IMG/VR virus record: IMGVR_UViG_3300020220_000041 | Direction: 5' to 3' (one strand) | DNA length: 64,000 bases | Origin: a virus | In this document: positions 14,462-37,840 of the stretch, one piece after another | Layout of the letters: each line of letters opens with the position of its first letter | How positions within the stretch are numbered: position 1 is the first letter of the stretch | Made by a program: the position numbers and the translations under genes | The notes under the pieces: generated by a model | Told to the model about the DNA's origin: nothing | Seen by the model: the letters and a program-made list of their open reading frames with translations, nothing else | The model's database searches: none

Positions 14462-15538
14462 TCAGTCGATGCCGCACACCGTCTTGAGGATGCGGGCGGT
14501 CACGACGTAGGGGTCGACGTTCGCACAGGGGCGGCGGTCCTCGAGGTACCCGGAGCCCTTCTCCTTCACGGAGCGGGGGATGCGGATGCTCGCCCCCCGG
14601 TTCGCGATGCCCCAGCGGAACTCCTTGTACGAGCAGGTCTCGTGCTTCCCGGTGAGTCGAGCCTCGATGCCATCCCCGTAGCAGGCGATGTGCTCCGCGT
14701 GCTTCTCCCCGAGCTTCTCGCAGGCGGACTTGATGGCGTAGATGCCGAACTTCTGCTGGGACTCCCGATTGGCCTTCTCGTCCGTGCCGCCGAAAGAGGC
14801 GGGGTCAAGCCGCATCGCCGCCGTCGAGAAGTTGGTGTGGGCACCGGCACCGTTCCAGTCACCACGGGCGGGCTTCGGGTCGAGGGAGGCGTTGATCTCG
14901 TGGTCCTCTCCGAGCCGGTAGAGGAGCCAGCGGGCCAGCCACAGGTGGTCCGCCACCGTGAGCGGGTCCGAGGTCCCGATCTGGAACTCCCACTGGCCGG
15001 GCATGACCTCGGCGTTGGTCCCGTAGAGCAGGAGCCCGGCGTCGAGGCACGCCTTCGTGTGGGCCTCGATCAGAGGGCGACCAACCACCTCGTCGGCTCC
15101 GACGCCGCAGTAGTAGGGGCCCTGGGGAGCCGGGTAGCCGTTGTCCGGGAAGCCGAGCGGACGGGAGCCCTTGAACAGGGTGTACTCCTGCTCGATGCCG
15201 AACCAGGGCTCTTCGACAGCGGCACCCGCGTCGAGGACACGACGAAGCTCGGCCCGGGTGTTCGACTTGTGCGGGGTGACCTCGTCGCCGTTGAGGACTT
15301 CGCACAGGACGAGGTAGTTCGGGACGCCTCGAATCGGGTCCGTGACGACGCGAACGGGCTTCAGAGCGCAGTCAGAGTCGTGACCTTCGGCCTGGTACGT
15401 GGACGAGCCGTCGAAGCCCCACACGGGGAACTTGTCCGGGGTCGGCTCCCCCTCGATCTCCACAATCCGGGTCTTGGAACGTAGCTTCTGGGTGGGCGCG
15501 GCTCCGTCCATCCAGATGTACTCTGCCTGTGAACGCAT
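14462..15538 (-). CDS. glnII: Glutamine synthetase type II
   Basis: YIWMDG...LRSKTR, GIEQEYTLF, GPYYCGVGA, AEVMPGQWEFQIG, GAHTNFST and ASIRIPR. The length of 358 aa is typical of GSII. Confidence 0.8.
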   Translation of the reverse strand: MRSQAEYIWMDGAAPTQKLRSKTRIVEIEGEPTPDKFPVWGFDGSSTYQAEGHDSDCALKPVRVVTDPIRGVPNYLVLCEVLNGDEVTPHKSNTRAELRRVLDAGAAVEEPWFGIEQEYTLFKGSRPLGFPDNGYPAPQGPYYCGVGADEVVGRPLIEAHTKACLDAGLLLYGTNAEVMPGQWEFQIGTSDPLTVADHLWLARWLLYRLGEDHEINASLDPKPARGDWNGAGAHTNFSTAAMRLDPASFGGTDEKANRESQQKFGIYAIKSACEKLGEKHAEHIACYGDGIEARLTGKHETCSYKEFRWGIANRGASIRIPRSVKEKGSGYLEDRRPCANVDPYVVTARILKTVCGID

Positions 15539-15582
15539 GGGTGTCCTCCGATGAGCGAGGGCACCCTACCGAGCGGTCAGGT

Positions 15583-16008
15583 TTAATCTCCACCACCTCC
15601 GCCCCCGCCACCATCACAACCGCCGCCCGAGTCGCTGCTGCCCGAGTCGTAGCCGCCTCCGCAGTCCGAGGAGTGGGAGGAGTCCGAGGAGTGTCCGTGG
15701 GAGGAGCCCCAGTCCGAGGAGTGGATGTGGCGAGCCGGAGGGTCGTCGTAGAACGGGATGGCCGGCACGTACACGGGGGTGTCGTCCGTTGGGTTCGGTG
15801 TGCTGGGCGACGGCTTCCGGTCCCGAGTCTGTGCGGGTTGGGGCCGGTGGAGCGACGGCTTTTCCGGTCGATGCGGAGGAGGTGGGGGGAAGGCCCTGTA
15901 GATGTCCTCGTCCTCGATCGCGACATCTCTCCGGGAACGCCAGAGCATCACGCAGGCTCCGAGAACGAACCCGAGGGACAGCACGCCTAAGATGATGAGG
16001 ATCTCCAC
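15583..16008 (-). CDS. Membrane protein with Pro-rich and Ser/Gly-rich tail
   Basis: N-terminal TM helix MEILIILGVLSLGFVLGACVMLW, then PPPPPHRP, then a poly-Gly/Ser C-terminus. Confidence 0.45.
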   Translation of the reverse strand: MEILIILGVLSLGFVLGACVMLWRSRRDVAIEDEDIYRAFPPPPPHRPEKPSLHRPQPAQTRDRKPSPSTPNPTDDTPVYVPAIPFYDDPPARHIHSSDWGSSHGHSSDSSHSSDCGGGYDSGSSDSGGGCDGGGGGGGGD

Positions 16009-16034
16009 GGGTTCTCCTTACGGGGCCTGTTGCG

Positions 16035-16361
16035 TCAGTGGTACATACCGACCAACATGAGTTCGAGCTTCCGCCCCCGTTCTGTCGGGTAGGGGACGAC
16101 TTCACCCCCATCCTTCTCGATGGACTTCCAGCCTTCGGTGCCCATCCGTAGGGCGGCACAGACGAGCGGCGGCCACTTGAACTGCTCGGGTCGGAGGACG
16201 GCGAAGAGAACCATCTCGTCGGGGGCCTCGTCGTCGTGGTAGTGCTTGCCCTTCTCGAAGACGACGCGGACGACTTCGCGGACGCCATTGCGGTTGGTGA
16301 TCGTCCACCATCGGGGCGACCCGGCGAGGGGCATCTCGACTTTGTTCTCTCGAATGGCCAT
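16035..16361 (-). CDS. Hypothetical protein
   Basis: The real part begins MAIRENKVEMPLAGSPRWW. Its ATG overlaps the upstream stop as ATGA. Confidence 0.5.
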   Translation of the reverse strand: MAIRENKVEMPLAGSPRWWTITNRNGVREVVRVVFEKGKHYHDDEAPDEMVLFAVLRPEQFKWPPLVCAALRMGTEGWKSIEKDGGEVVPYPTERGRKLELMLVGMYH

Positions 16362-16681
16362 CACGCCCCCAGCATGGGTTGGACGGTGAAAAACACATGG
16401 TTCTGGGAGGTCCGCAGCCATTCCCGCATGTCCGTGTCGCTGGGGGCCTGGCTGAAGCTGTTGGCGCTGTTGCGGCTGAAGCAGTACTCCTTCGGGGTCT
16501 GGAGCCCTTGCTGGGCGACCACACAGGTGCGACCCCGGGTCGCCTCCTCGTCCACCCATCGGGCGGCGTCCCTCAGATCCATGAACACGGCGACGATGCT
16601 CCCCCCGTGCATCACGACGAACTCGTGCGGCATCGGCTGCACCAGGGAGCCGTCTCGGACGGTCGCGTTCCAGTACACCAC
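16361..16681 (-). CDS. Hypothetical protein
   Basis: GTG start 1 nt after the upstream TGA. The sequence ...VYWNATVRDGSLVQPMPHEFVVMHGG... is protein-like. Confidence 0.4.
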   Translation of the reverse strand: MVYWNATVRDGSLVQPMPHEFVVMHGGSIVAVFMDLRDAARWVDEEATRGRTCVVAQQGLQTPKEYCFSRNSANSFSQAPSDTDMREWLRTSQNHVFFTVQPMLGA

Positions 16682-16682
16682 C

Positions 16683-16910
16683 TCAATCCCCGGAGGAATG
16701 ATGTGGTACTCGTAGAGGGGGGTAGCTGAGGGCCTCTTTCCCGAAGTGCGAGGCGTTGTACGCCTGGACCCGCAAGAGGTCGTGCTCCTTCTCCATCTGC
16801 TCGAAGCGAGCCGCGTCCGCACCTTCGGCAAAGACGGCTCGGGCCCTCCAATGACGGAGAGCCACGGAGCGGCAGAGGAACAGGTGGCGGGTCGAAAGGT
16901 CCAGGAGCAT
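16683..16910 (-). CDS. Hypothetical protein
   Basis: MLLDLSTRHLFLCRSVALRHW..., with a GGTAGAGG RBS and a GCGTACAAAGGGG -10-like element. Confidence 0.4.
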   Translation of the reverse strand: MLLDLSTRHLFLCRSVALRHWRARAVFAEGADAARFEQMEKEHDLLRVQAYNASHFGKEALSYPPLRVPHHSSGD

Positions 16911-16983
16911 GTCAACCTCTACCCCTTTGTACGCGGCTGAAAGCGGATGGGGGAGTGAGGATGTCCCCCACTCCCCCAAGTCT

Positions 16984-17628
16984 TTACGGAACCTCGATGA
17001 AACGCAGGGTTTCCGCGTTGTTGTAGAAGCGGATGCCCATCTCCTCGACATCGCGACCGCTCTGCTCGTGGATGTGTCCGAACAGGTGCGCCACGATGCG
17101 GTGGGGGCGGTAGGAGAGCGCCCGGGTCAGCGGGCGGTTCCCGCAGCCGTGACCCCCACCGTTGTCGTCGTCGAGGATGCCCGCCGCCGGAGCGTGGGTC
17201 ACGAGGATGGTGGGGTCCGCCTCGAACACCCGATCGACCATCGGGCTGAGGTCGTGCTCCTCACCGTTCCACTCACCCGCAATCCAGGGGATCTCCCGCA
17301 TTCCGGCGATACGGTGACCGTCGATCTCGACCGCTTCCACGGTCGCGTCGAAAGCCGCCTCATAGCCGTTCTCCCGGAGAAGCTCGGCGAGGTTCACGTA
17401 GTCGTGGTTGCCGCCCACCCACACCACCGGCTTGCCGCCGAAGCGCGCGATGAGGCTGCCCACAACCTGCTTGAACCAGGCCGCCTGGAAGGCGGGCTCG
17501 ATCTCGCGGTCACCACGAGTCGCATTGGGGAAGAAGTCCCCGCTGCACACCCACACATCGGGAAGCTCGCTCGAGCCGAGGAGCTTGCTGACGTTGCCGT
17601 GAAGGTCGCTGAAGTGCCCGATACGCAT
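16984..17628 (-). CDS. Calcineurin-like metallophosphoesterase
   Basis: MRIGHFSDLHG, GDFF, VGGNHDY and FGHIH motifs. ATG at 17628 with a GGAGAGG RBS. Confidence 0.7.
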   Translation of the reverse strand: MRIGHFSDLHGNVSKLLGSSELPDVWVCSGDFFPNATRGDREIEPAFQAAWFKQVVGSLIARFGGKPVVWVGGNHDYVNLAELLRENGYEAAFDATVEAVEIDGHRIAGMREIPWIAGEWNGEEHDLSPMVDRVFEADPTILVTHAPAAGILDDDNGGGHGCGNRPLTRALSYRPHRIVAHLFGHIHEQSGRDVEEMGIRFYNNAETLRFIEVP

Positions 17629-17644
17629 GGTGTCCTCTCCGAAC

Positions 17645-17681
17645 ACCTATACTACGCAGCACCCCCGACGACCTGAACCTT
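17645..17681 (-). promoter_or_regulatory. Conserved promoter-like motif: AGGTTCAGG-N14-GCGTAGTATAGG
   Basis: Full copy, 17 nt upstream of the metallophosphatase start. Confidence 0.5.
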
Positions 17682-17682
17682 C

Positions 17683-18498
17683 CTAGAAGTCGTCGTCGGA
17701 GGTCTCGTCCTCGGGCTCCTCGCGGCCGTAGAAGTCGGAGAACTTCGCGGCACCCCCGGCCCGAAGGCCGAAGATGTCGAGGTCGAACACGGCCTGGTAG
17801 CGGTTGGTGCTCGGATACCGGCCTCCGATCTCCTCGCACTTCGCCACCATCCGGCGGTAGTCCTCCACCGTCGGCATCCAGACGAACTGGATGCACTGGT
17901 CGCGACCCGGCTCCGCGTTGTAGCTCGGAATCCGGTTGACCTCGCCCGGCTTCTGCCACCGGTCCTCGGCCTCGAGCCGGATGTCGTCCCGCTTCCGCAG
18001 GATCTCGAGCGCCTTGTCCAGACGGTAGACGGTGTTGTCGAACCGGCCGTCGATGTAGGAGAACCGCATCGCCACGGGGAGCGGGCGCTTGTCCACGTCG
18101 AACAACTGGTGGCTCGAGCCCTGGAAGAACACGATGTCCTGGGCGGTCGCCGACCCCTCCATGAACCGGGTGTAGGGGGTCTTGGAGAGGATCTCGCACT
18201 CCTTGTAGAACTGGTCCGAGCCCCAGCCATACTCACGAGCCAGGGTGAGGAACGCGGGGGTGGCCAGAAGGGCTCCCCACTCCTTCGTGTACGAGGGCAT
18301 GTCCGCAGCCCCCTTCTGGTAAGCCAGGAGTGCCGCCTTCGAGGTGATGCCCTCGGTGACGGTGACGTGCGGCTTCCGACGACCGGACTTCGTGCTCATG
18401 GTGACGCGAAAGACGATCACGTCCTCGTAAACCGCGAGGTACTCGACCACCTTCTCGGTGGTCACGACGGTCTTGGAAGTCATGGTCTGCGGGGTCAT
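17683..18498 (-). CDS. Hypothetical protein
   Basis: 271-aa protein-like ORF with an acidic C-terminus. It is preceded by an AGGTTCAGG -35-like element plus a variant -10 at 18510-18549. Confidence 0.55.
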   Translation of the reverse strand: MTPQTMTSKTVVTTEKVVEYLAVYEDVIVFRVTMSTKSGRRKPHVTVTEGITSKAALLAYQKGAADMPSYTKEWGALLATPAFLTLAREYGWGSDQFYKECEILSKTPYTRFMEGSATAQDIVFFQGSSHQLFDVDKRPLPVAMRFSYIDGRFDNTVYRLDKALEILRKRDDIRLEAEDRWQKPGEVNRIPSYNAEPGRDQCIQFVWMPTVEDYRRMVAKCEEIGGRYPSTNRYQAVFDLDIFGLRAGGAAKFSDFYGREEPEDETSDDDF

Positions 18499-18509
18499 GT
18501 TGTCTCCCT

Positions 18510-18549
18510 ACATCCCTTGTTGCGCCCGGCGATCCGAAACCTGAACCTT
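18510..18549 (-). promoter_or_regulatory. Variant promoter-like motif: AGGTTCAGG-N14-GCGCAACAAGGGATG
   Basis: The -35-like half is identical. The -10 half is the GCGCAACAAGG variant. Confidence 0.4.
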
Positions 18550-18588
18550 GCGGTGACGGTTCTATAGCTGGGACGGATTGGAGGAGGG

Positions 18589-19596
18589 TTGATGCCCTCA
18601 CACGGCATTTGTCTCCGGCTCACGCACACAGGCGTTGTTCCGTCCAACCTGTTCGTGGCCGATGTCCACGACGGCGTGGACGTAAACGGGCGTCGTGCGA
18701 ACGCGAAGCCTGGCCCCCTCTACGTCCCCTTCGGTACCAGCATCGACCTCGTATACACCACACAGGTGGCTCAGTCGTTCGAGACAGGGAACATCCGAGT
18801 CTGGGTGGACATGGGCTACCTGACGGCGGAGTTCTTCTTTGGCACCGAGTTCACGGCTGAAGTAGCAGCCGAATCGGCCATAGAGGTGCAAGACGAGAGC
18901 ATCACCGTCGAAGACATTGCCCACACTTTGAACTTCGTTGGGACGGGGGTAGATGCCACTTCACCATCAGCGGGGGTGGTCGAAGTAGCCATCCCTGGTC
19001 TGTTGGTTCAAGACGATGGTGCAGATGTTGAGGAGCCCACCACTACGCTGAACTTTCTGGGGCCACTCCATGCGACATCGCCCTCGGCGGGTGTAGTCAA
19101 TGTCTCCGTCGCAGGAGTAGGTGGGGCCGTCGTTGTCGAGCAGGACAACGCTGTGGTGCAGGCGACCACGACGGTTCTCAACTTCATCGGTCCGGGACTC
19201 GAAGCCACGGATGCGGGCGGGGGTCAGGTTGATGTAGTAGCAACGGGCACCCTCGGGACGCTGACGTTCGAACTTGGACCTATCCAAGACATCGACGCGG
19301 TGACGGACCAGTTCCTCCCAACGACGACGGCTCATCGGTTCACCGTCACTGGCGGGAACTACACGCTCACCTCGACCCCGACCATCAACTGGCCCGGTGC
19401 GGTGGCTGGTCAGATCGTCGTGTTGATGAACGTCAATCCCAGTGGCTCGAATCACGTCATCTTGAATCGGGGTGTCGCCGAAGGGCTTCGGTTGAGCAAC
19501 GCCAGCAGGAAGCTCGACCCTGGCGGCTCGATGACGCTCATGTACATCGGCTCGGTGTGGGTGGAACTCACCCACACCGAAAGCACAACGACCTAG
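18589..19596 (+). CDS. Repeat-containing fibre-like structural protein
   Basis: Three ~40-aa repeats: TLNFVGTGVDATSPSAGVVEVAIPG, TLNFLGPLHATSPSAGVVNVSVAG and VLNFIGPGLEATDAGGGQVDVVATG. Confidence 0.5.
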   Translation: MMPSHGICLRLTHTGVVPSNLFVADVHDGVDVNGRRANAKPGPLYVPFGTSIDLVYTTQVAQSFETGNIRVWVDMGYLTAEFFFGTEFTAEVAAESAIEVQDESITVEDIAHTLNFVGTGVDATSPSAGVVEVAIPGLLVQDDGADVEEPTTTLNFLGPLHATSPSAGVVNVSVAGVGGAVVVEQDNAVVQATTTVLNFIGPGLEATDAGGGQVDVVATGTLGTLTFELGPIQDIDAVTDQFLPTTTAHRFTVTGGNYTLTSTPTINWPGAVAGQIVVLMNVNPSGSNHVILNRGVAEGLRLSNASRKLDPGGSMTLMYIGSVWVELTHTESTTT

Positions 19597-19599
19597 CGC

Positions 19600-20178
19600 C
19601 TATTCGTCTACGATGTTCGCCCAGGCGGCTTCCCAGCGAGCCTTGGCTTCAGCCGCTTCCTTCTCGTCCTTGGGGCACTGCATCTCGTAGCCCCCGTGGT
19701 GAACGAGGGGCTGCTTGCACTCCTGACAGGGGACATCGCGGTACTCGCGTGCCCACAGGTGCTCGACCCCGGAGAAGTCGGAGTTGGCTTCGACCCACCG
19801 CCGCTCCTCCACAGAGAGTGCGCGGGCCTCCATCACCTCGAACTCGCAGTCCTCTCCGCTCCCGATCATCCGTCCGTGGAGGACGTAGAGGCCGTCAGGC
19901 TCCTTTTCCATGGCGTAGGCGAGGGTCTGGAGAGCCGCACCCGAGTCTCCGCTCACCTCCCAGTCCCAACTGGCTCCCATGGAGGCGAGGACTTCGACGT
20001 GGCCGCTTCGTCCGCCCGACAGGCTCCCTTTCTCCGGAGGAGGGCCGCCCATGTAGACGATGAGGATGCGGGACCACACCTTTCCTACGTCATGGGAAGG
20101 CTCGTAGTGCCCGCTCTTGTACAGTTCGAGGCTGACGATGTTGCTGGGCGCGTCGAGGTCGAGGCGGTCGTTGGACAT
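19600..20178 (-). CDS. Hypothetical protein with C-terminal Zn-binding motif
   Basis: The real part begins MSNDRLDLDAPSNIV (ATG at 20178). It has PCQECK...CPKDE. The track ORF's N-terminal extension is R/H/G-rich read-through. Confidence 0.5.
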   Translation of the reverse strand: MSNDRLDLDAPSNIVSLELYKSGHYEPSHDVGKVWSRILIVYMGGPPPEKGSLSGGRSGHVEVLASMGASWDWEVSGDSGAALQTLAYAMEKEPDGLYVLHGRMIGSGEDCEFEVMEARALSVEERRWVEANSDFSGVEHLWAREYRDVPCQECKQPLVHHGGYEMQCPKDEKEAAEAKARWEAAWANIVDE

Positions 20179-20180
20179 CG

Positions 20181-20906
20181 TTATGCCCCCCGAACGAAGC
20201 CGTAGGATTCGGAGATGTTCACGTCCACCTTGACCCCCTGCTCGGCGAGCGTGGTGTCCGGGGTCGTACCGTAGAAGGTGTTGTTCCCGGCCTTGACGCC
20301 GACGACCTTGTATCCGGCCTTGTAGCCGATGTAGAAGCCGTGATCGACGTTGGTGACGGGGACGCCGTTCGCGTCGGGCATCATCAACGTGGACGTGTGG
20401 AACGCCCGCATGGCGGTGAGGGCGTTGAACATGATGTCCCCGAGGGTGCGCCCGTAGGCCAACCGCGAGAGCCGGTTCGTGGACCGGGTGATCCGACGCA
20501 TCCGCTCCACGAGGGTGATGCCGGAGCCGTAGCCCTCCTCGGTGCAGTCGGACATGGAAGCGAGGAACAGCCACAGGGCTTCCCGACGCCACGCACCGGA
20601 GATGTCCTCGAACGGACCCTTGAAGTCGAGGGGGAGCCCCTGACCCTCGAGCAGGATGCCAGGACCGCGCCAATGTGCGGATTGAATCGCCTCCATTCCA
20701 GAGGCTTCGGTGAGATTGAGCGAAGCACAAATCTCTTTGAACTCATCCGGACAGATGAGGGCGAGGAGAAGTGGATCGGGTCCTTGCACCAAGACCCGGT
20801 TCAGGACCGTGCAGTCTTGAACCGCTGCCGGATCCTCCGAGAAGGTGAGATCCATCAAGAATGGAAGAAGGGCACTGCGAACACGATCTTGGTCTTTATG
20901 TGCCAT
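20181..20906 (-). CDS. Hypothetical protein
   Basis: 241-aa ORF with protein-like composition. Confidence 0.5.
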   Translation of the reverse strand: MAHKDQDRVRSALLPFLMDLTFSEDPAAVQDCTVLNRVLVQGPDPLLLALICPDEFKEICASLNLTEASGMEAIQSAHWRGPGILLEGQGLPLDFKGPFEDISGAWRREALWLFLASMSDCTEEGYGSGITLVERMRRITRSTNRLSRLAYGRTLGDIMFNALTAMRAFHTSTLMMPDANGVPVTNVDHGFYIGYKAGYKVVGVKAGNNTFYGTTPDTTLAEQGVKVDVNISESYGFVRGA

Positions 20907-20948
20907 CGAGAAGCCTCACCGATAATCCATCTATAGTCTACTCGATGT

Positions 20949-21566
20949 ATGCGACAAGCACACACCCTTGCAGAGATTACGTCTGACTTGACCCTTCTGA
21001 ACCTCGGGGGCTGGAACGACCCCATTTTGGTGAGTTGTACTCGATGTGGGGAGACCTGCCCGAAGAAGAAGCACCACATTCGACAAGCAATCAAGGCGAA
21101 ACAAGTGGGGCTGTTCTGCTCGAAATGTCGTGTTGCTTCCTACCGTCGCGAGCAAACACTCGTGGAGCAAGACGGAGAGCAAGGTCGGGTTTGCATCAAG
21201 TGTGGTGTGTGGAAACCGCTCAGAAAGTTCTCTTCGGGTTCTATGTCTCGCACCTGCGCCTACTGTTGGGGTCAGCGTCCGAACATCCGGTTCCACGAGT
21301 ATGAACGCAGGGCCGCGTCAAGGGGGTACCCGTTCTCCCTCACCTTCGAGGAGTTCATGGGGTTCTGGGGGAAACCTTGTTCCTACTGTACAGGGCAAAT
21401 TTCTGGAATCGGCCTCGACCGCATCGACAACGAGAAAGGCTACGCCTTGGACAACGTGACACCCTGTTGTGAGACGTGTAACCGCATGAAACTCCAGATG
21501 GATCGGGCGGAGTTCATACAACATTGCCGTAAGATCGCATCGTCTCACCCCAATGTCGTGGCCTGA
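20949..21566 (+). CDS. HNH endonuclease (AP2-HNH type)
   Basis: GLDRIDNEKGYALDNVTPCCETCNRMK plus an N-terminal Zn-ribbon. Confidence 0.7.
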   Translation: MRQAHTLAEITSDLTLLNLGGWNDPILVSCTRCGETCPKKKHHIRQAIKAKQVGLFCSKCRVASYRREQTLVEQDGEQGRVCIKCGVWKPLRKFSSGSMSRTCAYCWGQRPNIRFHEYERRAASRGYPFSLTFEEFMGFWGKPCSYCTGQISGIGLDRIDNEKGYALDNVTPCCETCNRMKLQMDRAEFIQHCRKIASSHPNVVA

Positions 21567-22108: not shown

Positions 22109-22111
22109 GGG

Positions 22112-22595: not shown

Positions 22596-22620
22596 GGGGA
22601 CTCCTGGGGATTCCTGGGGG

Positions 22621-28700: not shown

Positions 28701-30306
28701 ATTGCGGGAAACGACCGCATCCGGGTTGTTCGTCGGAATGTCCATTCCCGTGCTCGATCAAGAGAACGAAACGATCGCTCTCGATCGAGTTGCCTGCATT
28801 GAACGGGTGGACGGCAGCTTCATCGATCTCGATGTGTTGGATGCCAGCAACTTCTTCGCCAACGGCATCCTGACTTCCAACAGCATCTACGAGTTCCGTG
28901 CGGCGGACCCCGAGGCGTTCATCGACATGAGCGAACTCGTGGCGGGTGGGGCCGGGTTCAAGACCGAGGTGCTGAAGACCAACTACCGGTCGGGGCAGTT
29001 GATCGTGGAGGCGGCCAACCGGCTCATCTCCTACAACACCAAGCAGATCCCGATGACCTGTGCCGCGAACCCACAGCGCGTGGACCGGGGTGGCATCGAG
29101 GCGGTCAACTTCGCTCCGGTCGAAGGTCGGGACATGAGTGCCCCGGCCGAGTGGCTCGCCACCTCCATCGCCGAGACGATGGAGGAAGGACGTGCGGGGG
29201 CCAAGGGCTACGACGCCTTCGGGGTGGGGCTGCGGTCCAACGCCGAGGCATACACCTACGGCATCGAGCTTCTGAAGAAGGGCATCCCGTTCCGCTCCAA
29301 GGCCAACTTCTTCGGCGACCCGACCACCAAGGCGCTGTTGCACTGGCTCACCATCGCCGATGAGGGTGTTGGTGGGAGTGTGGACCGGGTCAACGAGGCG
29401 GTACTGGGTGCCCGCAAGGCTCCAGCGTCGAAGCTCGGGGACAAGTTCGAGGAGATCCTGACCCAGCGGGCCACCGGGAACTACCTGACCTGGCTTCAGG
29501 ACAACTGGACCGAGGTGTACGGCTCTCGGGGCGACTGGGCGATGCTGGTTCGGTCCTTCGTGGACAACCTGCTGGCGGTCGCCGGGATGAAGGGCGGAGC
29601 CTCCGAACAGGTGCTCGAGACGATCCTCGACCTCACGGGGCACGACGGTCGGTCGGTCCGCCAGGTGCTCGTCGACCGGGTGTCCGAGGATGAGGAGGCC
29701 ATCGCCGAGCTTCGGGCCGAGTCCCCCACGGGCACAGTCACGGACGAGGAGATCGAGTCGATGGCGTTCGCGCCCATCGCTCCTCTGAAGGGTCTGTTGG
29801 GTGCTCGGGCGGACCTCAGCGAGGCGATGAAGTACGTCCGGCAGCTTCAGTCCGCGAACGAGAAGCTGGCTGCGGACGACGACCCCGACAACAAGAAGGC
29901 TCGTGAGCCCGCCGTCACGCTGGGCACGATGCACTCCTGGAAGGGCCTCGAAGTCGAGAACATGTACATCCCCTTCGTCGGCGGCCGGTTCCCCCGGTTC
30001 GATGCGGACGAGGAGGATCTGGCCTCCGAGCGTCGTCTCGCCTACGTGGCGGTGACTCGCGGTGAGAACCGGGTCGTGGTGATGAACATCCCGACGGTGC
30101 GTCGGACGAAGCAGGGAGCCGTCACCCAGACGAGCCAGTTCGTCGGCGAACTGTGCATCCCTCCGGCGGTGGACAGTCCATTCAGCGCGGGAGATGAGGA
30201 CGCCGAGCAGGAAGTGCTGCGGCTCGAGGAGCGGATGAACCGAACCGCGTCCTACCTCTCGGACGAAGCCATCTCGGCCTACCTCTCGGGCCAAAAGGGG
30301 CGGTGA
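25774..30306 (+). CDS. UvrD/PcrA-like superfamily 1 helicase with ~280-aa N-terminal extension, interrupted by an intein
   Basis: Motif I AIIAAGAGSGKTATL, motif II ALVDEAQDLN, and motif III split as GDDKQ|C...N|SIYEFRAAD. Total 1510 aa. Confidence 0.7.
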   Translation: MKSSTNRVASRWMQAENTDEPSESVGDVSPGAFVDLMAFFQAVAAYRALKGDEDPQTRRAAPLVRRFQSDLVAGANRYFAPLTDDTAFAGLRNEVRTLTRGTRGLDHASEQAAALRKILWTLHPKPQVVREVFSDSRSYTAVMRLAALAATDSAGSLLNSVASLTPASRLQLTRKWIRDAAEAANVAPSKVETVLSDAENARHLGEDLHTVEVQLATADPVSQRAADLQVEKQAIIDQIEKVVADSPSPAVVLSAAASATTQPQDYATATAKRSRLSPDQERAMMARGKAIIAAGAGSGKTATLASKVAYHVNELGVPPGAVIATSFSRKSAAELRRRIAKYGADIPDSASTGFGTTHSVAGKLLREYGGGGRNGMKSYQQTDLVRLAMEQVQMVGPGVAPPPPTSLFDVSSDAPVGIKFRDAIQMAFDRRHKLDPWSKGFIESFYNPSDQWYARTMRATGNLTNPHGLSDKQREIVKKVFGRLGINYSPTTDPGLAPAQTQPAPRVAAKDKNKGLREKYKFFSQPANEWFNLGLELVEEDGQGNKKPIPTGFFKNAISKFKGRAVSPSEAWALSNGSPEAAVYAAYEWLKGSKGETDFQGLGDFDDVLLDVSKMLLSSPRVRQQVQSRFKVALVDEAQDLNRAQHLMFGLITGFVDPAKVPNIATAKKMGELAKDDGSMTADTYCFIGDDKQCVEANSLVETQNGPRRVGDLAPGDEVLAYRNGKVLLQAVRHVVPSSWTWGYKVTMESGQTLTMSPNHKLWATEPQTEDGQVAVYLMYRKDMGFRVGITNKGKVGSEEDYLNSYGGRVFLEKAERLWVLDICSSREEALLTETDLSLTYGIPTTVFNGEHRDLNQDRINTIFQKHGKNGGRLLEERNLSFDLPHWMSQSYTKHGRDRHTLQFLAHSTKGSQVAMEWVGDKFDKVLQDVSFNITGERRRLRRWFGNYREGLAHAEEVARRTGANLSYRMATPEGTLRETTASGLFVGMSIPVLDQENETIALDRVACIERVDGSFIDLDVLDASNFFANGILTSNSIYEFRAADPEAFIDMSELVAGGAGFKTEVLKTNYRSGQLIVEAANRLISYNTKQIPMTCAANPQRVDRGGIEAVNFAPVEGRDMSAPAEWLATSIAETMEEGRAGAKGYDAFGVGLRSNAEAYTYGIELLKKGIPFRSKANFFGDPTTKALLHWLTIADEGVGGSVDRVNEAVLGARKAPASKLGDKFEEILTQRATGNYLTWLQDNWTEVYGSRGDWAMLVRSFVDNLLAVAGMKGGASEQVLETILDLTGHDGRSVRQVLVDRVSEDEEAIAELRAESPTGTVTDEEIESMAFAPIAPLKGLLGARADLSEAMKYVRQLQSANEKLAADDDPDNKKAREPAVTLGTMHSWKGLEVENMYIPFVGGRFPRFDADEEDLASERRLAYVAVTRGENRVVVMNIPTVRRTKQGAVTQTSQFVGELCIPPAVDSPFSAGDEDAEQEVLRLEERMNRTASYLSDEAISAYLSGQKGR
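27853..28881 (+). other. Intein (343 aa: Cys1 ... terminal Asn, +1 Ser) inside UvrD motif III
   Basis: The host motif GDDxQSIYxFRGA is broken between Q and S. The insert starts CVEANS and ends ANGILTSN. Its size allows an endonuclease domain. Confidence 0.6.
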
Positions 30307-31130: not shown

Positions 31131-34100
31131 TGACGACCTCCGCTTCACGAAATCGCATGGTTCGGCGGATCGCTGACACCTACCTGGGTTCCATCCGGGT
31201 CGCTGAGGAGGAGGCTCCATTCGAGGACGACTCGGCCGACGAGCCGCTCCCTACTCGACCCATGTTCTCGTCGAGTGCCCGCCAGAAGTTGTTCCGAGCC
31301 TTTGGTCCCAGAGGCATCGCGTTCTTCGATCTCTACGACGCCCTCCGCCAGGTCGCCGTAGGGGGTCTGCCTCCGGAGAGTGGCTTCGTCCATGAGTTCC
31401 GGGCGTTGTCTCGCATCGTGGCTCGGTTCCTCACAACGGAGCCGACCAAGGGCAAGCTCGCGGATATCGCCTCCAGGCTACGCCCGTTGTTCGACCGCAT
31501 CGACAGCGGAAGGGCCAGTCGCGCCGTGTTCCGCACAGCGGCAGGTCTGTACGCGACTCTCGTACAGGAGGTGGCTTCCGACCGCGACGTCCACCTCGCA
31601 CCGATGTCCGGCGGTGCTCCGGGCTGGGTGGCGTTCAAGCTCATGTCCGCCCGCGAGGAGAAACTCGACGAGTTGATGCGGAACGACCCCGAGGCGTTCA
31701 ACGTCATCCAGCGGTCGAGGTCGATCGTCCGACAGATCGATCGGTCCATCGAGAAGGAAATCTCCGATGGCGGCCTCATCCCCAGCAAGAAGGAGATCCT
31801 CGGCCGTCCTGTGCAGACGGGGAAGGATCCTGTATCGGGCGACGAGTACGTGTTCGACACCGACGGAGAGATGCTCTCCATCCCCTCCTTCATCGAGAAG
31901 CGTCGCAAGGCTCTCGAATCCCAGGAAGCGGCCCGCCGAGTATTCCCCCGCAACGTGGCGGACTTGAGGTCGCTGAACGACGAGGAACTGGACGCCTTCA
32001 CGGTGGGGAGCATGGAGTACGTCGCTCTCACCGACGACAAGGCCAAGTCAGGTGGGCTCACGCGCATCTACCCGGCGAAGCGCACCGTGGACGGCGACCT
32101 GGTGGTTGTCGATGGTCGGTTCAAGGGCATCTACATCGACGACCTCGTGAACCGTGCGGGTCGGATGATCGAAGGTGTGGCCTTCGACGTCGATCCGAAG
32201 AACGGCGTGCCTGTCCCGATGGAGACACGAAACCCGGATGGCACCCCCAACGTTCGCTCGAGCCGCGAGCCTTACGTCACGGTCGGCACCAAGGGGTCGC
32301 TCTACCTTCGCATCCCAAGCGGACACGGGTTCACGGCGGCCCGCAACGCCCTGACGGCTCTTTCCAAGAGCATCCCGTCCCTTCAATACGTGGAGGGGTC
32401 GCGGAAGTCGGCCTTCACGTTTGAGCCGAAGGACTTCGCCACGGTTCGCGAGGCTCTGGGTGGGCTTGCGCTCTCCACGGCAGCCACGAAGCTGCTCCGG
32501 GACTTCTTCTCGGGCCTCGCCAAGCACGAACTCGCCATCTCCAGCGAGAACCTGCAACTCTTCGACACCGACCGTATCGGCGGCTTCAAGCCGGGGCGTC
32601 GCCTCTACAACAAGCAGAAGGAGGCGATGGCCTGGCTTGAGTCCCGTGGGCACTCGGGCGTCGTCGCCCTTGACACCGGCCTGGGCAAGACCGCGACCAC
32701 CATCGCCTCGATGCAGAAGATCATCCGGGATGGGCTCATCGAGGAGAACCAGCAGTTCCTCTACGTGTGCCCCAAGGCGTTGAAGGGGAATCTCCCGAAG
32801 GAAATCGTCGCGTTCGTCGAGGATCCCGAGACGCTCCTCTCGCGCGTGAAGGTGATGACCTACCAGGAGTTCACTCGAGCCGTCAAAGACGACCCGAACT
32901 TCGCGGACCGCTACGCGGCTGTGTTCTTCGACGAGGCCCAGGCGCTCAAGAACTCGAAGTCCGGTCCAGGTCGGGCTGCGATGGCCCTCCGACACCCGAA
33001 GAAGGTGCTGTTCACGGCGAGCCCCATGGAGAAGTCTCCCATGGAGGTCTTCAACCTCGTCGCCATCACCAACAACATCGACCTGAACACGCGCGAGGGT
33101 GCAGCACAGGCTCGAGCCTTCCGTCGGCGGTTCGCCGAAGAGGTGGGTGGGAAGATCATCGGGATCAAGAACGACCCCGTCACGGCTCGGGATTTCCGCG
33201 TCTGGGTGAAGCGGAACCTCTACTTCGCCGACAAGCGGGACGTGGAGGAGGTCGTTCTCCCGCAACTCCGGTCCCAGACCGTGGCCATCACGATGGACCC
33301 CGAAGTCGAGGCTCGCTACCGCGAGGTGGCCAAGAGCGTCGAAGGGGTGCTCGCTGGGATGGTGGCGAAGTACCGCGACCGTGACCCATCCGCGAAGGAT
33401 CCAGCCATCGAAGCGGCTCGGGTGCGTCTGCGGAAGGAGTTCGGAATCCTGTTTGAACTGGCCAATGCCCCGCAGAAGGCCGTCCCAGGGGCCTCGAACC
33501 CGAAGATGACCCACCTCGTTGACATCCTCGACGAGCGGGTGGGCGCGAATAGACGGACCCTGGTATTCACGGACAGTCCGGACCTTGCGGGCGAAACCGC
33601 AGAGATCCTCTCGACCCGATTCCCCGGGCATAGCGTGGCCGAGTGTCTCGCGCAGTCCATCCGGGAATGGAAGGGCGGCCGGGTGGTCCAGGTCTACAGG
33701 GAGGCCAAGTACACGGATGGCAAGCGGACCTGGCCCAAGAGCGACTGGAAGGTCTACGTCCTCGACCGGATCGTGAGCCCCGATCCCGACTACATCGCCT
33801 GTGTCCTCACATCGACATACGCCGTGGGTCAGAACCTCCAGCAGTTCGACACGGTCGTCCACCTCGACCGCGATGCGTGGAACAACGAGGTGATGAAGCA
33901 GCGCACGGCCCGAGCGTGGCGGAGCGGGCAGCAGCACTCAGTCGAGGAGTACGTGCTCGACGCCGTGTACTCTGACCCGGCCAATGACCGGGACGAGACG
34001 CTCGACCAGATCGTCGCCCACCTCCAGCGGCTCGAGTCCGAGTTGTTCGACCAGGTCATCATCGAGAGCCAGTCGGAAGCCCTCGGGAAGGAGTGGTTCG

Positions 34101-34222
34101 GGATGAAGCGACTCCACTCCTCCTTCGTCGAGTTGAGTCGGCGAATGCTCGAACTCTCGATGTCCCCTTACGCGCAACGTCTTGGGCTCCATGAGGTTCA
34201 GGAAATGGCCCAGAAAGCGTAG
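31130..34222 (+). CDS. SNF2/RAD54-family helicase with long N-terminal region
   Basis: ALDTGLGKTATTIA (motif I), FFDEAQALKN (DEAH box) and YAVGQNLQQFDTVVHLDRDAWNNEVMKQRTARAWRSGQ (motif VI). Confidence 0.7.
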   Translation: MTTSASRNRMVRRIADTYLGSIRVAEEEAPFEDDSADEPLPTRPMFSSSARQKLFRAFGPRGIAFFDLYDALRQVAVGGLPPESGFVHEFRALSRIVARFLTTEPTKGKLADIASRLRPLFDRIDSGRASRAVFRTAAGLYATLVQEVASDRDVHLAPMSGGAPGWVAFKLMSAREEKLDELMRNDPEAFNVIQRSRSIVRQIDRSIEKEISDGGLIPSKKEILGRPVQTGKDPVSGDEYVFDTDGEMLSIPSFIEKRRKALESQEAARRVFPRNVADLRSLNDEELDAFTVGSMEYVALTDDKAKSGGLTRIYPAKRTVDGDLVVVDGRFKGIYIDDLVNRAGRMIEGVAFDVDPKNGVPVPMETRNPDGTPNVRSSREPYVTVGTKGSLYLRIPSGHGFTAARNALTALSKSIPSLQYVEGSRKSAFTFEPKDFATVREALGGLALSTAATKLLRDFFSGLAKHELAISSENLQLFDTDRIGGFKPGRRLYNKQKEAMAWLESRGHSGVVALDTGLGKTATTIASMQKIIRDGLIEENQQFLYVCPKALKGNLPKEIVAFVEDPETLLSRVKVMTYQEFTRAVKDDPNFADRYAAVFFDEAQALKNSKSGPGRAAMALRHPKKVLFTASPMEKSPMEVFNLVAITNNIDLNTREGAAQARAFRRRFAEEVGGKIIGIKNDPVTARDFRVWVKRNLYFADKRDVEEVVLPQLRSQTVAITMDPEVEARYREVAKSVEGVLAGMVAKYRDRDPSAKDPAIEAARVRLRKEFGILFELANAPQKAVPGASNPKMTHLVDILDERVGANRRTLVFTDSPDLAGETAEILSTRFPGHSVAECLAQSIREWKGGRVVQVYREAKYTDGKRTWPKSDWKVYVLDRIVSPDPDYIACVLTSTYAVGQNLQQFDTVVHLDRDAWNNEVMKQRTARAWRSGQQHSVEEYVLDAVYSDPANDRDETLDQIVAHLQRLESELFDQVIIESQSEALGKEWFGMKRLHSSFVELSRRMLELSMSPYAQRLGLHEVQEMAQKA

Positions 34223-34241
34223 TATAGGTGAGGAGTAGACC

Positions 34242-34538: not shown

Positions 34539-34855
34539 CGAGCCACGAAGGGCCGCTTGATGCCCTTCGTGAACCACTCCGAGTCCGTGGGCCACGCCTC
34601 GATGCCGAGGGCTTCGCGAAGCATCACGGCAACGCACGAGGCGTCGATCTCGTTGAGGCCCATCTTCTCCATCACGTAGGAGAAGTGGAGCCCGCCGTCG
34701 AGGGACACGACCATCGCCCGGAGCTTGTCCGAGAAGGGTCCGACCACGATGAACCCTCCCCCACTGGAACCGAAGATGGGGGTCTCGACCCTGGTGACCA
34801 GGAGTTCGTAGCGGGTTCCGTTCCCGGGTTCCCAGAGCAGACGAGTGGATTCCAT
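34535..34855 (-). CDS. Hypothetical protein
   Basis: 106 aa. Preceded by the promoter-like motif. Confidence 0.5.
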   Translation of the reverse strand: MESTRLLWEPGNGTRYELLVTRVETPIFGSSGGGFIVVGPFSDKLRAMVVSLDGGLHFSYVMEKMGLNEIDASCVAVMLREALGIEAWPTDSEWFTKGIKRPFVAR

Positions 34856-34871
34856 GTGGGGGTCCTCCTGT

Positions 34872-34906
34872 TCTGACTACGCCGACGCCAGGGGATTCTG
34901 AACCTC
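34872..34906 (-). promoter_or_regulatory. Conserved promoter-like motif: AGGTTCAGA-N14-GCGTAGTCAGAACAGGAGG
   Basis: Full copy. Confidence 0.5.
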
Positions 34907-35695
34907 TGCGTCGATGACGGCCTGGTAGATTTCGGCCCCCATACACCCGCTGTACTTGGACATCCAGTCCCGAGCCTTCTCGGCGGTGATGCCGACCTTG
35001 GCGGCGTAGGCGAGGCAGGCTTCCTTGGCGATGGCCGGAGGGACCAGCCAGTAGGTCCGCCAGTCGTCGTGGCTGTTGGCGTCTTCACGGTAGATGGTGA
35101 CGCCGTTGTAGGTGAACTCCGAGAGGGTCAGCTTGTACGAGCCCGAGTTGTCGCGAGCGACCTCCCGCACCCGAACGAGCTTCGACGGGTCGGCCATTTC
35201 GCAGGACACCGACACCATCCCATCAGCAACGGCTCGGGCGGCCTTGTAGGCAGCGGCCTCGGCCTCATCGGCAGCCTTCTTCTCGGCGGCCTTCACCTTG
35301 GCTTCCTCGGCGGCCTTCTGGCGAGCCACCTTGGCCTCTTCCTTGTTGGCCTTGCATCGGGCGTGGTCGAGGCAGTAGACGTGCCACCCGCCGTGGTCGT
35401 GGTGCTTCATGCACCCGGAGTCCTCGACGCAGTAGACCAGTTCGCCCTGGCCCACCTTGAGGTAGTCCCCGCACGAGTCGCAGTACCCGGCCTTCTGGTT
35501 CGTCTTCTGGCCCTTGCCCCGGTTGGCGGCACCGGTGCCGCCCGCCACGAGCCCGACGAGCGGCTGCTGGGCCGTGGGGCAGGAGGCGTGCTCGGTGACA
35601 CCGCCGCCCCACATGATCTCCGTGCCCGCCGCGAACTTGGAGCCGCACTTGCGGCAGGTACCCGGGTAACGCGCCGTCATCTTCTTCATAGACAT
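34877..35695 (-). CDS. Hypothetical Cys-rich protein with K/A/E-rich central region
   Basis: The start is probably the ATG at 35695 (MSMKKMTARYPGTCRKCG), with a GGGAGGG RBS. Confidence 0.5.
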   Translation of the reverse strand: MSMKKMTARYPGTCRKCGSKFAAGTEIMWGGGVTEHASCPTAQQPLVGLVAGGTGAANRGKGQKTNQKAGYCDSCGDYLKVGQGELVYCVEDSGCMKHHDHGGWHVYCLDHARCKANKEEAKVARQKAAEEAKVKAAEKKAADEAEAAAYKAARAVADGMVSVSCEMADPSKLVRVREVARDNSGSYKLTLSEFTYNGVTIYREDANSHDDWRTYWLVPPAIAKEACLAYAAKVGITAEKARDWMSKYSGCMGAEIYQAVIDAEVQNPLASA

Positions 35696-35717
35696 TGCTG
35701 TGCCCTCCCACTGGGTG

Positions 35718-35754
35718 TTCTGACTACGCAAGTGGGTGGCAGGGCTGAACCTTC
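35718..35754 (-). promoter_or_regulatory. Conserved promoter-like motif: AGGTTCAGC-N14-GCGTAGTCAGAAC
   Basis: Full copy. Confidence 0.5.
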
Positions 35755-35781
35755 AGTTCAAACGATCTTGAAAGCCCAGGT

Positions 35782-35997
35782 TCAAGGCTTCTTCGATTTG
35801 AACAGATCCCGAATGCGAGGCCCTTCGGGTGTACGGATGGGGATGTTCTGGAGGTTGGGACCCCGCCCATACAGAGCCCCGAAGTTGATCGCTCGAGCGG
35901 CTTCACGCTGCTCGGGGGTCACCTGGTCCTCGGGCACGCCGAACATCTCGGCAGCGGTCTTGCGGTGGATGTCCTGGCTCATGTTCTCGTCTCCCAC
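35782..35997 (-). pseudogene. Scrambled DNA polymerase I (family A) fragment
   Basis: [36 protein letters not shown] (motif B / O-helix region) is followed directly by [18 protein letters not shown], which normally lies upstream of motif A. The ORF is only 71 aa. Confidence 0.55.
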
Positions 35998-36500
35998 AGG
36001 GCGGATAACCTACGCAGTTCCGCTGAAATCAGCCGATCTTGGCTTGCGTACTGTGCCTCGAACCCGCTCGCCTTTTCGTCGTCTTCCCGCCACCAGCGAG
36101 GCGCTGGCGAGAACCCGTGCTCATCCGCAATCCACTGCTCCTGACGTTCGGTCGGAGTGGGCCACTCCGTTGCAAGGAGGATGGGTTCCGAGCGTTGGTT
36201 GTCGAGGTTGAGCCAGGGGACAGACTTCAGGATGCCCTCGCCTTTGAAGGGTCGGCGTTTCCCGACTCGGAGGGCCATCCACTTGAGGACCGCATGTTCC
36301 CAGTCGTGGGGGCTGTTGAACCCGAGTTGGAGGGGGCCGTGTCCGTACTTGATGCCCCCTTGCTGAACGAGCCCCTGGAAACGGGGCCGAAGTCCCGTCG
36401 CCAGCACTTCGGACCCATCCCTGAGATGCTTCTCGGCGAAGGCCACCATCTCCCCGAGAGCCGCTTCAGAGCGGCAGGTGAAGGAGAAGCTGTAGCCCAT
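35979..36500 (-). CDS. Hypothetical protein
   Basis: The real part begins [26 protein letters not shown]. Its ATG overlaps the asnS stop as TGATG. Confidence 0.5.
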
Positions 36501-37840
36501 CAGATGCTCCCCGGAGTCCTGGGGTACGGAAGCACGTCGCGGATGTTCGGGACGCCCAGGAGCCACATCAGGATGCGTTCGAGGCCGAGCCCGAACCCAC
36601 CGTGAGGCACCGTGCCGTACCGGCGGAGGTCGATGTAGTGCCGGTAGTCGGACGGGTCGAGCTTGCACCGCTCGATCTGTGCGAGGAGCTTGTCGAGGCG
36701 CTCTTCACGCTGGGAGCCCCCGATGATCTCGCCCACACCGGGCACGAGCAGGTCGAAGCACGCGACCGTCTGACGACCAGGGACACATCCGTCGTTGAGC
36801 CGCATGTAGAACGACTTGTGCTGCGCGGGGTAGTCGGTGACGAACACCGGCCCCTGAAACACGACCTCGGCGATGTACCGCTCGTGCTCCGTCTGGAGGG
36901 GGTGCTCCCACCCAACGGGGTGCTCGAACTTCCGGCCGCTCTCCTCGAGGATTTCGAGGGCGTGCGCGTAGGTGATCCGAGCGAACGGGTCGAAGGAGAG
37001 GGCCACCTTGGCGGACTCCTGGATGGCTCCGGTCACCGAGAGAGCATGGGCACAGGCACGCACCAGTCCCTCGGCCAGGTCCATCACGTCGCCCACGTCC
37101 GCGAAGGCCACCTCGGGCTCGATCATCCAGAACTCGGCCGCATGGCGGGCCGTGTTGCTGTTCTCGGCCCGGAAGGTCGGCCCGAACGTGTAGACCTTCG
37201 AGAAGGCACAGGCGAACGGCTCCACGTCCAACTGGCCGGAGACAGTCAGGTACGCGGGCTGTCCGAAGAACGGCTCATCGTCCGTCTCCTTCTCGTGGAC
37301 GACCCCGAACATCTCACCCGCCCCCTCGCAGTCGGAGGCCGTGAGGATGGGCGTGTGTACCCACATGAACCCCCGCGTGCGGAAGAACTCGTGGATGGCA
37401 GTGGACACGGTGTTCCGAGCGATGAAAACGCGCTGGAACTCCTGCGTGCGGACGCGAAGATGGGGGATCGTCCGGTAGAACTCCGGAGACGCCTCCTTCT
37501 TCTGAACCGGGAAGTCCGAGGCGTCGCAGTCGCCCACGACGGTCACGCCCTCGAGGGTGGCCTTGATCTCGTGGGGCTGCTCGGGGCCTGGAGAGGCCGC
37601 GAACACGCCCGTCACGTCGAGGGCCGCCCCCACACCCAGGCGAGCCCGTAGGGCGTCGTCAGCGGGCGGGGAGAGGACGATCTGGACGGTCTTCTCGGTC
37701 GAGCCGTCGTACAGGTGGATGAACGTGACCTTCTTGGCGAAGCGAGACGTGCGGATCCAGCCCTGGACGCGGACGTGGGCACCTTCGGGAGTGATCCCCG
37801 TGAGCAGGCGGCGCACGGAGATGGGGTCAACGGGAACCAT
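36500..37840 (-). CDS. asnS: Asparaginyl-tRNA synthetase (class II)
   Basis: FRAENSNTARHAAEFWMIEPE, GGSQREER and YGTVPHGGFGLGLERILMWLLGVPNIRDVLPYPR. The N-terminal OB domain starts VRVQGWIRTSR. Confidence 0.8.
   Translation of the reverse strand: MVPVDPISVRRLLTGITPEGAHVRVQGWIRTSRFAKKVTFIHLYDGSTEKTVQIVLSPPADDALRARLGVGAALDVTGVFAASPGPEQPHEIKATLEGVTVVGDCDASDFPVQKKEASPEFYRTIPHLRVRTQEFQRVFIARNTVSTAIHEFFRTRGFMWVHTPILTASDCEGAGEMFGVVHEKETDDEPFFGQPAYLTVSGQLDVEPFACAFSKVYTFGPTFRAENSNTARHAAEFWMIEPEVAFADVGDVMDLAEGLVRACAHALSVTGAIQESAKVALSFDPFARITYAHALEILEESGRKFEHPVGWEHPLQTEHERYIAEVVFQGPVFVTDYPAQHKSFYMRLNDGCVPGRQTVACFDLLVPGVGEIIGGSQREERLDKLLAQIERCKLDPSDYRHYIDLRRYGTVPHGGFGLGLERILMWLLGVPNIRDVLPYPRTPGSI

Follow-up and report, generated by a model that had tools for sequence, protein, structure and literature searches.

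Huge or jumbo bacteriophages, taken here as Caudoviricetes with a genome of 200 kb or more, carry tRNAs, up to 15 aminoacyl-tRNA synthetases (aaRS) per genome, initiation factors (IF1 as well as IF3) and genes for tRNA modification and repair, and their translation genes were described as "distinct from but related to" the host copies (Al-Shayeb et al., 2020, Nature 578:425; PMC7162821). The supplementary GenBank files of the same study annotate IF-1 in many dozens of records' worth of text no further than "dozens of genomes", and also contain entries named "asparaginyl" and "glutamine synthetase" (Al-Shayeb et al., 2020). The HPGC preprint reports 248 glutamine synthetase (GS) genes in 247 huge phages (215 freshwater/marine) and proposes that GS, when nitrogen is limiting, supplies the glutamine needed to make nucleotides and amino acids (bioRxiv 10.1101/2025.02.27.640493), and the tRNA-His guanylyltransferase Thg1 is noted as a sporadic gene in jumbo phages (Iyer et al., 2021, Viruses 13:63; PMC7824862). 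Here we analysed a 64 kb stretch of DNA with 63% GC (IMG/VR record IMGVR_UViG_3300020220_000041), called the window from here on, which carries a glutamine synthetase of the GlnII type (GSII), an asparaginyl-tRNA synthetase (AsnRS) and infA, the gene for translation initiation factor IF-1.

We propose, with a probability of about 0.8, that the window comes from the genome of a jumbo or huge bacteriophage sampled in an environmental metagenome and that GSII, AsnRS and infA are three unlinked auxiliary genes, inherited vertically in a phage lineage and functional as judged by selection. Both the phenomenon and its rationale are already in the literature, and the window is a new lineage of known huge-phage auxiliary genes. 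A first interpretation made from the letters of the stretch (the sequence-only reading) had called these genes rare cargo for a phage, which holds for small cultured phages only, since aaRS, IF1 and GS have all been published for huge phages. What is mildly new is the maintenance by selection of phage clades across relatives of about 166–530 kb, a conserved infA-Thg1 neighbourhood and a variable loop in GSII, and the window adds a well-documented case of very large phages carrying their own pieces of translation and nitrogen assimilation.

The three genes are present at full length, as the sequence-only reading had stated, and all score above curated equivalog cutoffs. AsnRS, identified by Pfam, NCBIfam and motif alignment, is a class IIb enzyme of 446 amino acid residues encoded on the minus strand (36500–37840). 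Its longest open reading frame (ORF) begins with a TTG (36500–37852), and the ATG at 37840 was accepted as the start because of its GAGG Shine-Dalgarno motif and because it gives the 446-residue length of a 96%-identical protein (P0001). The protein is composed of an OB-fold anticodon-binding domain (tRNA_anti-codon, PF01336, residues 27–97) and a catalytic domain (tRNA-synt_2, PF00152, residues 128–446), and it reaches 516 and 493 bits with the asnS equivalogs of NCBIfam (cutoffs 414 and 343), whereas the paralogue models stay under their cutoffs (AspRS ≤248, LysRS ≤108 and AsnA ≤138 bits). The class II motifs 1–3 (FMWVHTPILT, FRAENSNTARHAAEFWMIEPE and GFGLGLERILMWLLGVPNIRDVLPYPR) can be aligned with those of the solved AsnRS structures 6PQH and 5ZG8, and in the LTVSGQL loop the protein and 6PQH do not differ. 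Motifs 1–3 and the SGQL loop, with the arginines of motifs 2 and 3, do not vary within the clade of 26 members to which the window protein belongs, and motif 2 shows a clade-specific change, "RHA".

GSII is encoded on the minus strand (14462–15538) and has 358 residues, counted from an ATG preceded by the Shine-Dalgarno sequence GGAGGA. It was identified by Pfam, NCBIfam and alignment, with Gln-synt_N (PF03951) at residues 6–83 and Gln-synt_C (PF00120) at residues 94–353. The match to the NCBIfam GlnII equivalog NF041605 is a marginal pass (502 bits, cutoff 500), which we attribute to a lineage-specific loop insertion; the GSI and GSIII models give 53–55 bits (cutoffs >429). The best solved match is GlnII of Streptomyces coelicolor (4BAX, 439 bits), whereas plant and human GS give about 350 bits, which rules out a eukaryote-derived GSII; "eukaryote-type", the term used in the sequence-only reading, is only a historical family nickname, and the gene belongs to the bacterial GlnII lineage. 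In fact, its nearest named cellular relatives are proteins from metagenome-assembled genomes (MAGs) of Bdellovibrionota, Planctomycetota and Gammaproteobacteria, with 62–64% identity. GSII shares the two-domain architecture, the length class and the catalytic residues of 4BAX and of bacterial GlnII, and differs from the S. coelicolor enzyme in a loop insertion, in being phage-borne and in that its nearest named relatives are not actinomycetes.

The 19 residues that make up the metal, ATP, glutamate and ammonium sites of human GS are all kept (human positions D63, S66, E134, E136, Y162, E196, E203, N248, G249, H253, S257, R262, R299, E305, R319, R324, Y336, E338 and R340). The human reference sequence used for this was checked by its length of 373 residues and by the residue types at the published positions. 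The active-site residues are invariant in the 19-member GSII clade and in 202 aligned homologues. Inactivating substitutions were looked for at the motif 2 and motif 3 arginines of AsnRS and at the active-site residues of GSII and were not found, so that the catalytic integrity claimed in the sequence-only reading is confirmed.

The AlphaFold2 monomer model of GSII has a mean predicted local distance difference test (pLDDT) of 91.2 and a predicted template modelling score of 0.91. The insertion comprises 18–21 residues after R243 (approximately residues 244–264, LDPASFGGTDEKANRESQQKF; 14746–14808, minus strand), was recognised as a gap against the PDB references and human GS and has no counterpart in any solved GSII structure. 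In the model it forms one additional short surface helix (residues 254–261, pLDDT 82–91). It is shared with P0122 and P0132, other clade members differ in its length and sequence, and it is absent from the closest relative, P0121 (88% identity), which indicates that it is dispensable. The GlnII subtype, the clade structure and this variable loop are not described in the accessible part of the HPGC preprint (10.1101/2025.02.27.640493).

These features bear on the possibility that the two enzymes acquired new functions, GSII ligating another amine or acting as a regulator or decoy and AsnRS being asparagine synthetase-like or Ap4A-producing instead of a tRNA ligase. The length-variable, lineage-specific insertion, the GlnII score that barely passes and the RHA change in motif 2 would fit such a change. 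Nevertheless, the ammonium-, glutamate- and ATP-site residues of GSII are invariant (D43, S46, Y143 and E300 among them), the insertion is missing from the closest relative, AsnRS keeps its anticodon-binding OB domain, and the asnS scores lie far above those of the AsnA models. We therefore consider neofunctionalisation very unlikely.

The third gene, infA (44713–44931, plus strand; PF01176 and TIGR00008), starts with a TTG and codes for an IF-1 of 72 residues, with eIF-1a (PF01176) at residues 7–70 and 91 bits to TIGR00008 (cutoff 61). The protein aligns end to end, from residue 1, with the solved IF-1 structures 2N8N and 4QL5. The gene sits in a rightward run in which it is followed by orf64 and by a gene for a Thg1-like tRNA-His guanylyltransferase, a 3'-5' polymerase (45182–45946, plus strand; PF04446, E=3.5e-29, and Thg1C). 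Thg1, two genes downstream of infA, is a fourth translation/tRNA-repair gene, which the sequence-only reading had not listed. The infA-orf64-Thg1 neighbourhood, found in the window and in the related contig L146, is not described in the accessible text of Iyer et al. (2021; PMC7824862).

The frames of GSII, AsnRS and infA are marked as real coding sequence by a third-position GC of 0.79–0.89, each is preceded by a Shine-Dalgarno motif, and the family matches have E-values from 1e-26 to 1e-155, which rules out chance for the three genes. Selection was estimated by the Nei-Gojobori method against close relatives, for which dS is unsaturated (0.39–0.52). The dN/dS values are 0.126 for GSII (against L001), 0.138 for AsnRS (against L147) and 0.134 for IF-1 (against L146), with 0.165–0.17 for neighbouring phage genes and 0.31 for Thg1. 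Purifying selection keeps GSII, AsnRS and IF-1.

If the genes were recent and functionally irrelevant passengers from the current host, heading for decay, bacterial-type sequences would be expected, as observed, and phages do pick up host genes sporadically. This is largely refuted, and is the least probable of the explanations that we considered, by the dN/dS of about 0.13 within the phage lineage, by active-site residues that are invariant across clades down to 56–69% identity, by the synteny kept across relatives and by the distance to named cellular proteins. For GSII the identity to named cellular proteins does not exceed 64%. For AsnRS it does not exceed approximately 57% in the protein search (about 55–57% to MAGs of Myxococcota, Alpha- and Deltaproteobacteria), and among the matches listed for species-representative genomes it is at most 53%, spread over mixed phyla and pointing to no donor or host. 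A host call from these best named matches (MAGs of Myxococcota and Alpha-/Deltaproteobacteria for AsnRS and IF-1, Bdellovibrionota for GSII) was rejected as too weak and inconsistent, and the short MAG contigs that give them may be mis-binned phage.

In neighbour-joining trees with 100 bootstraps, the window AsnRS falls in a clade of 26 metagenomic proteins only (bootstrap 76), three of which have an inspected, phage-like context. GSII falls in an 11-member clade (bootstrap 91), extended to 19 members with weak support, and a split with bootstrap 87 sets the window clade apart from about 95 bacterial and metagenomic sequences. All clade members with inspected context are phage-like. AsnRS and GSII thus appear to belong to lineage-specific phage clades and not to be recent host copies; the sequence-only reading had left open whether the three proteins are host-derived or viral, and these trees favour the latter for AsnRS and GSII.

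Virus-borne homologues are numerous. In IMG/VR, viral loci number at least 50 for AsnRS and at least 127 for GSII, with identities to the window proteins of at most 50% for AsnRS and at most 60% for GSII among the matches listed, in which the window lineage seems not to be represented. The copies in the published huge phages LR745206 and LR756501-3 are 30–33% (AsnRS) and 45–49% (GSII) identical to those of the window and lie outside the window clades, which points to independent acquisitions or very deep splits. The GSIIs of IMG/VR and of published huge phages are likewise further lineages outside the window clade, and the AsnRSs of IMG/VR, giant viruses and published huge phages stand outside the 26-member clade. 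Phage GSII and AsnRS genes therefore seem to form several separate lineages rather than one.

aaRS genes are also known from giant viruses of eukaryotes, such as Mimivirus, Megavirus (which has an AsnRS), the Klosneuviruses and Tupanvirus. Among the matches listed, AsnRS homologues on giant-virus MAG contigs in IMG/VR have 36–45% identity to the window protein. Giant viruses are eukaryote-infecting Nucleocytoviricota, whereas the window has Shine-Dalgarno sites, a bacterial infA, T4-type enzymes and an AsnRS in a separate clade.

The relatives show that gene order is conserved. The contig L001 (166 kb) has a GSII with 88% identity and the same neighbouring ORFs, and the contig L138 (244 kb), with a GSII of 69% identity, carries the module of UvrD-intein, 282-residue ORF and SNF2 together with Metallophos, MazG and ThyX, and keeps a Gln-Lys-Thr-Thr tRNA cluster (17421–18290) matching that of the window. 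An AsnRS with 91% identity (L147) and an IF-1 with 89% identity (L146) come from one sample, and in these contigs the orders ArdC...AsnRS...SNF2 and infA-orf64-...-Thg1, respectively, are kept. The GSII protein of the window recurs, identical and beside its usual neighbours, in the JGI metagenome 3300020200 and in two SRA runs. The samples with exact copies of window proteins are JGI 3300020200, SRR7979709 and SRR7053297, and relatives come from ERZ1066135, ERZ13692958, ERR14789940 and ERZ24794666. More distant members of the AsnRS clade also lie among orphan ORFs, one of them on a contig of 53 kb that also carries ArdC, PhoH and a second aaRS, and another on the 530 kb contig L137 (ERZ24794666 NODE_2), which is dense in orphan ORFs and has Cas3 (HD and helicase) and Cse1 genes (16830–21521) approximately 5 kb from its AsnRS. 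This suggests that L137 is a CRISPR-Cas-bearing huge phage related to the window through the AsnRS clade, and in having Cas3/Cse1 it resembles the huge phages of Al-Shayeb et al. (2020).

One could go further and hypothesise that a single ancient capture each brought AsnRS and GSII into the ancestor of an undescribed lineage of GC-rich jumbo/huge phages (approximately 166–530 kb) and that both are now bona fide viral families, the GSII loop being a phage-specific adaptation, for example for regulation or partner binding, that would allow escape from host nitrogen control. We regard this extended scenario as speculative and rather unlikely; if true, the lineage would be a tractable model of phage takeover of nitrogen assimilation and tRNA charging. 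In practical terms, what the analysis provides for the biochemistry of phage GS and AsnRS is a delimited group of related contigs, together with a GSII variant whose variable loop is dispensable.

The genes of the window are those of a region for replication and nucleotide metabolism in a large phage, and the phage context proposed in the sequence-only reading is borne out by them. We identified an intein-bearing UvrD helicase, an SNF2 helicase, a ThyX-like protein, MazG, a T4-type deoxynucleoside monophosphate (dNMP) kinase (phrog_139), dCMP deaminase, endonuclease VII, several HNH and GIY-YIG homing endonucleases, a phage depolymerase domain (Phage_depo_C), ArdC, Macro and ADP-ribosylglycohydrolase domains and a polynucleotide kinase (PNK)-like kinase. 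Phage-type replication and nucleotide genes and homing endonucleases are thus accompanied by a high density of orphan ORFs: most ORFs of the window have no Pfam or PHROG match, and a cellular core operon is absent. A cluster of six tRNAs (935–1935, minus strand; ARAGORN and Rfam) comprises four for Thr, namely Thr(UGU), Thr(GGU) and two Thr(CGU), one Lys(UUU) and one Gln(UUG). The orphan ORF beside GSII (orf371) matches only a published huge phage of 485 kb and "Virus Rctr197k", and an IMG/VR scan with it gave no match. Megablast of 24 kb of the window against 50,697 phage records also gave no match, so the window phage is not close to any deposited genome; it differs from the huge phages of Al-Shayeb et al. 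(2020) in this lack of a nucleotide-level match and in having a single aaRS in 64 kb. The HPGC preprint reports ArdC in huge phages, and the window likewise has it (10.1101/2025.02.27.640493).

Several observations weigh against the proposal of functional auxiliary genes in a huge phage. Major capsid, portal and terminase genes were not found among the scanned ORFs of the window or in the fetched flanks, so that the assignment to a phage draws on gene content, synteny and relatives; since the scan covers only this part of the genome, the missing virion genes do not exclude membership of the huge phages. As to genome size, the window has 64 kb and the longest contig with a 99% twin of the window IF-1 has 68.5 kb, the larger contigs being those of relatives. 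A cellular IF-1 is only slightly more distant (71% identity), and beyond the 99% twin the branching of the IF-1 tree has a bootstrap of ≤38 because the protein is short. The trees are distance-based and built from sequences picked by similarity to the window, the clade members are mostly unlabelled metagenomic proteins, and context was inspected for five of them. Within the window, ARAGORN and Rfam detected no tRNA-Asn that could be the partner of AsnRS, and the link of GSII to nucleotide synthesis is drawn solely from gene neighbourhood.

The lack of virion structural and terminase genes in 64 kb would also be expected if the window were not viral at all, that is, if it came from a bacterial chromosome, a megaplasmid or another large extrachromosomal element and the three genes were ordinary housekeeping copies. 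The three proteins are all of typical bacterial types, and ArdC is classically plasmid-borne according to the HPGC preprint (10.1101/2025.02.27.640493). However, the T4-type dNMP kinase, endonuclease VII, the many homing endonucleases and the depolymerase domain are typical of phages, the unmatched ORFs and the absence of a core operon do not suit a cellular chromosome, and the specific matches of orf371 are viral. Moreover, the 71%-identical IF-1 lies in an ordinary bacterial context quite unlike that of the window, where the housekeeping genes are isolated among orphan ORFs and outside their usual operons. A non-viral origin is, in our view, highly improbable.

The sequence-only reading had presented the three genes as one finding. 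They are, however, in three different transcription units, with no physical or transcriptional link, and the span 14462–37840 holds about 40 mostly unrelated genes and is not one feature; infA lies outside it. GSII closes a leftward run and is convergent with orf371, from which 3 nt separate it, the AsnRS stop overlaps the ATG of the next gene (TGATG), which embeds AsnRS in a translationally coupled leftward run, and infA belongs to a rightward run. An "amide nitrogen" module of AsnRS and GSII was considered and rejected, as the two genes are 21 kb apart in separate transcription units and asparagine synthetase and GatCAB are absent from the window. Control of these genes by a glutamine riboswitch or a T-box is ruled out at the Rfam gathering thresholds, at which the scan of the window found the six tRNAs only and no riboswitch or T-box.

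As to the roles of the proteins, AsnRS, with its OB-fold anticodon-binding domain and catalytic core, most likely charges tRNA-Asn, encoded by the host or elsewhere in the phage genome, and would sustain the supply of Asn-tRNA during infection. IF-1, a bacterial-type OB-fold protein of 72 residues, most likely binds the A site of the host 30S subunit and would supplement or replace the host factor, which would keep initiation on phage mRNAs going. The data show what the genes are, that their active sites are intact and under purifying selection, and that they lie in a phage context, in phage-lineage clades and in conserved gene order; the activity of the enzymes, the tRNA that is charged, the time of expression, the advantage to the phage and the host are inferred. 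The sequence-only reading had gone further, invoking many translation components and a partial replacement of host translation, which is overstated: one aaRS, IF-1, six tRNAs and a Thg1-like enzyme are the set in the window, enough to add to host translation but not to take its place.

Enzymes of the GSII family are not subject to the adenylylation that controls host GSI. The one in the window most likely joins ammonium to glutamate, with ATP, to give glutamine, and the extra glutamine would feed the purine and pyrimidine amidotransferases for a large, GC-rich genome. A role in nucleotide supply, already put forward in the sequence-only reading, fits the position of the gene, which is 2.4 kb from MazG and 6 kb from ThyX, and the presence of dCMP deaminase and dNMP kinase genes elsewhere in the window.

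Alternatively, AsnRS, IF-1, the Thg1-like protein, the tRNAs and the RNA-repair-like genes could be a backup kit, replacing parts of the translation machinery that are hit by abortive-infection systems (tRNA nucleases, translation-targeting toxins) or by the phage's own host shut-off, rather than simply boosting supply. Such roles were proposed for huge and jumbo phages by Al-Shayeb et al. (PMC7162821) and Iyer et al. (PMC7824862), and tRNA-centred genes do co-occur here: the window has the six tRNAs, Thg1, the PNK/AAA_33 protein and a 3'-5' exoribonuclease, and a relative codes for an RNA ligase and a tRNA_bind protein. The anti-defence genes ArdC, Macro and ADP-ribosylglycohydrolase lie nearby. 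On the other hand, AsnRS and IF-1 are not tied specifically to any known defence target, the genes are scattered and form no single module, and GSII is left unexplained. We consider a backup function possible though doubtful; it is compatible with our proposal of selected auxiliary genes in a huge phage, not exclusive of it.

Among the other genes of the window, the RNA-repair-like pair (50646–51941 and 52731–53291, plus strand) codes for a protein whose C-terminal domain is a polynucleotide-kinase-like AAA_33 and for a Rv2179c-like 3'-5' exoribonuclease, and the AsnRS neighbourhood of one relative holds an RNA ligase and a tRNA_bind/intein protein. The ArdC-like anti-restriction protein (39519–40418, minus strand) joins ArdcN to a zincin-like metallopeptidase and is also found near AsnRS in L139 and L147. 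Proteins with Macro and ADP-ribosylglycohydrolase domains are encoded at 49385–50002 and 62127–63164 (both plus strand), and L001 has an ORF with a PARP domain (6741–7631); these genes may counter or use ADP-ribosylation in the conflict with the host.

The ThyX-like ORF (6775–8439, minus strand) has 554 residues, of which only 400–533 form the Thy1 domain, the long N-terminal part having no family match, whereas the ThyX of L138 is of ordinary size (300 residues). The UvrD-family helicase (25774–30306, plus strand; 1510 residues) contains an insert of about 370 residues (694–1065) with Hint/intein-splicing matches under the Pfam cutoffs, and its homologue in L138 (1959–6107) has a recorded Intein_splicing match. 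The SNF2 helicase (31133–34222, plus strand) matches phrog_62 at 2e-38; tblastn against the phage collection gave no match for it despite the PHROG match, which may be a filtering artefact.

A small ORF of 71 residues close to AsnRS (35782–35997, minus strand) gives a strong match to 40 residues of family A DNA polymerase (70 bits; profile positions 183–222 of 381). Equivalents are present straight after AsnRS in L147 (3606–3800; 64 residues) and near AsnRS in another relative (137 residues), so this conserved fragment is possibly part of a split polymerase. Finally, a membrane gene pair (58308–61031, plus strand) codes for a YqiJ/NfeD-like protein followed by an SPFH/flotillin protein of 691 residues, which is unusual for a phage to carry.

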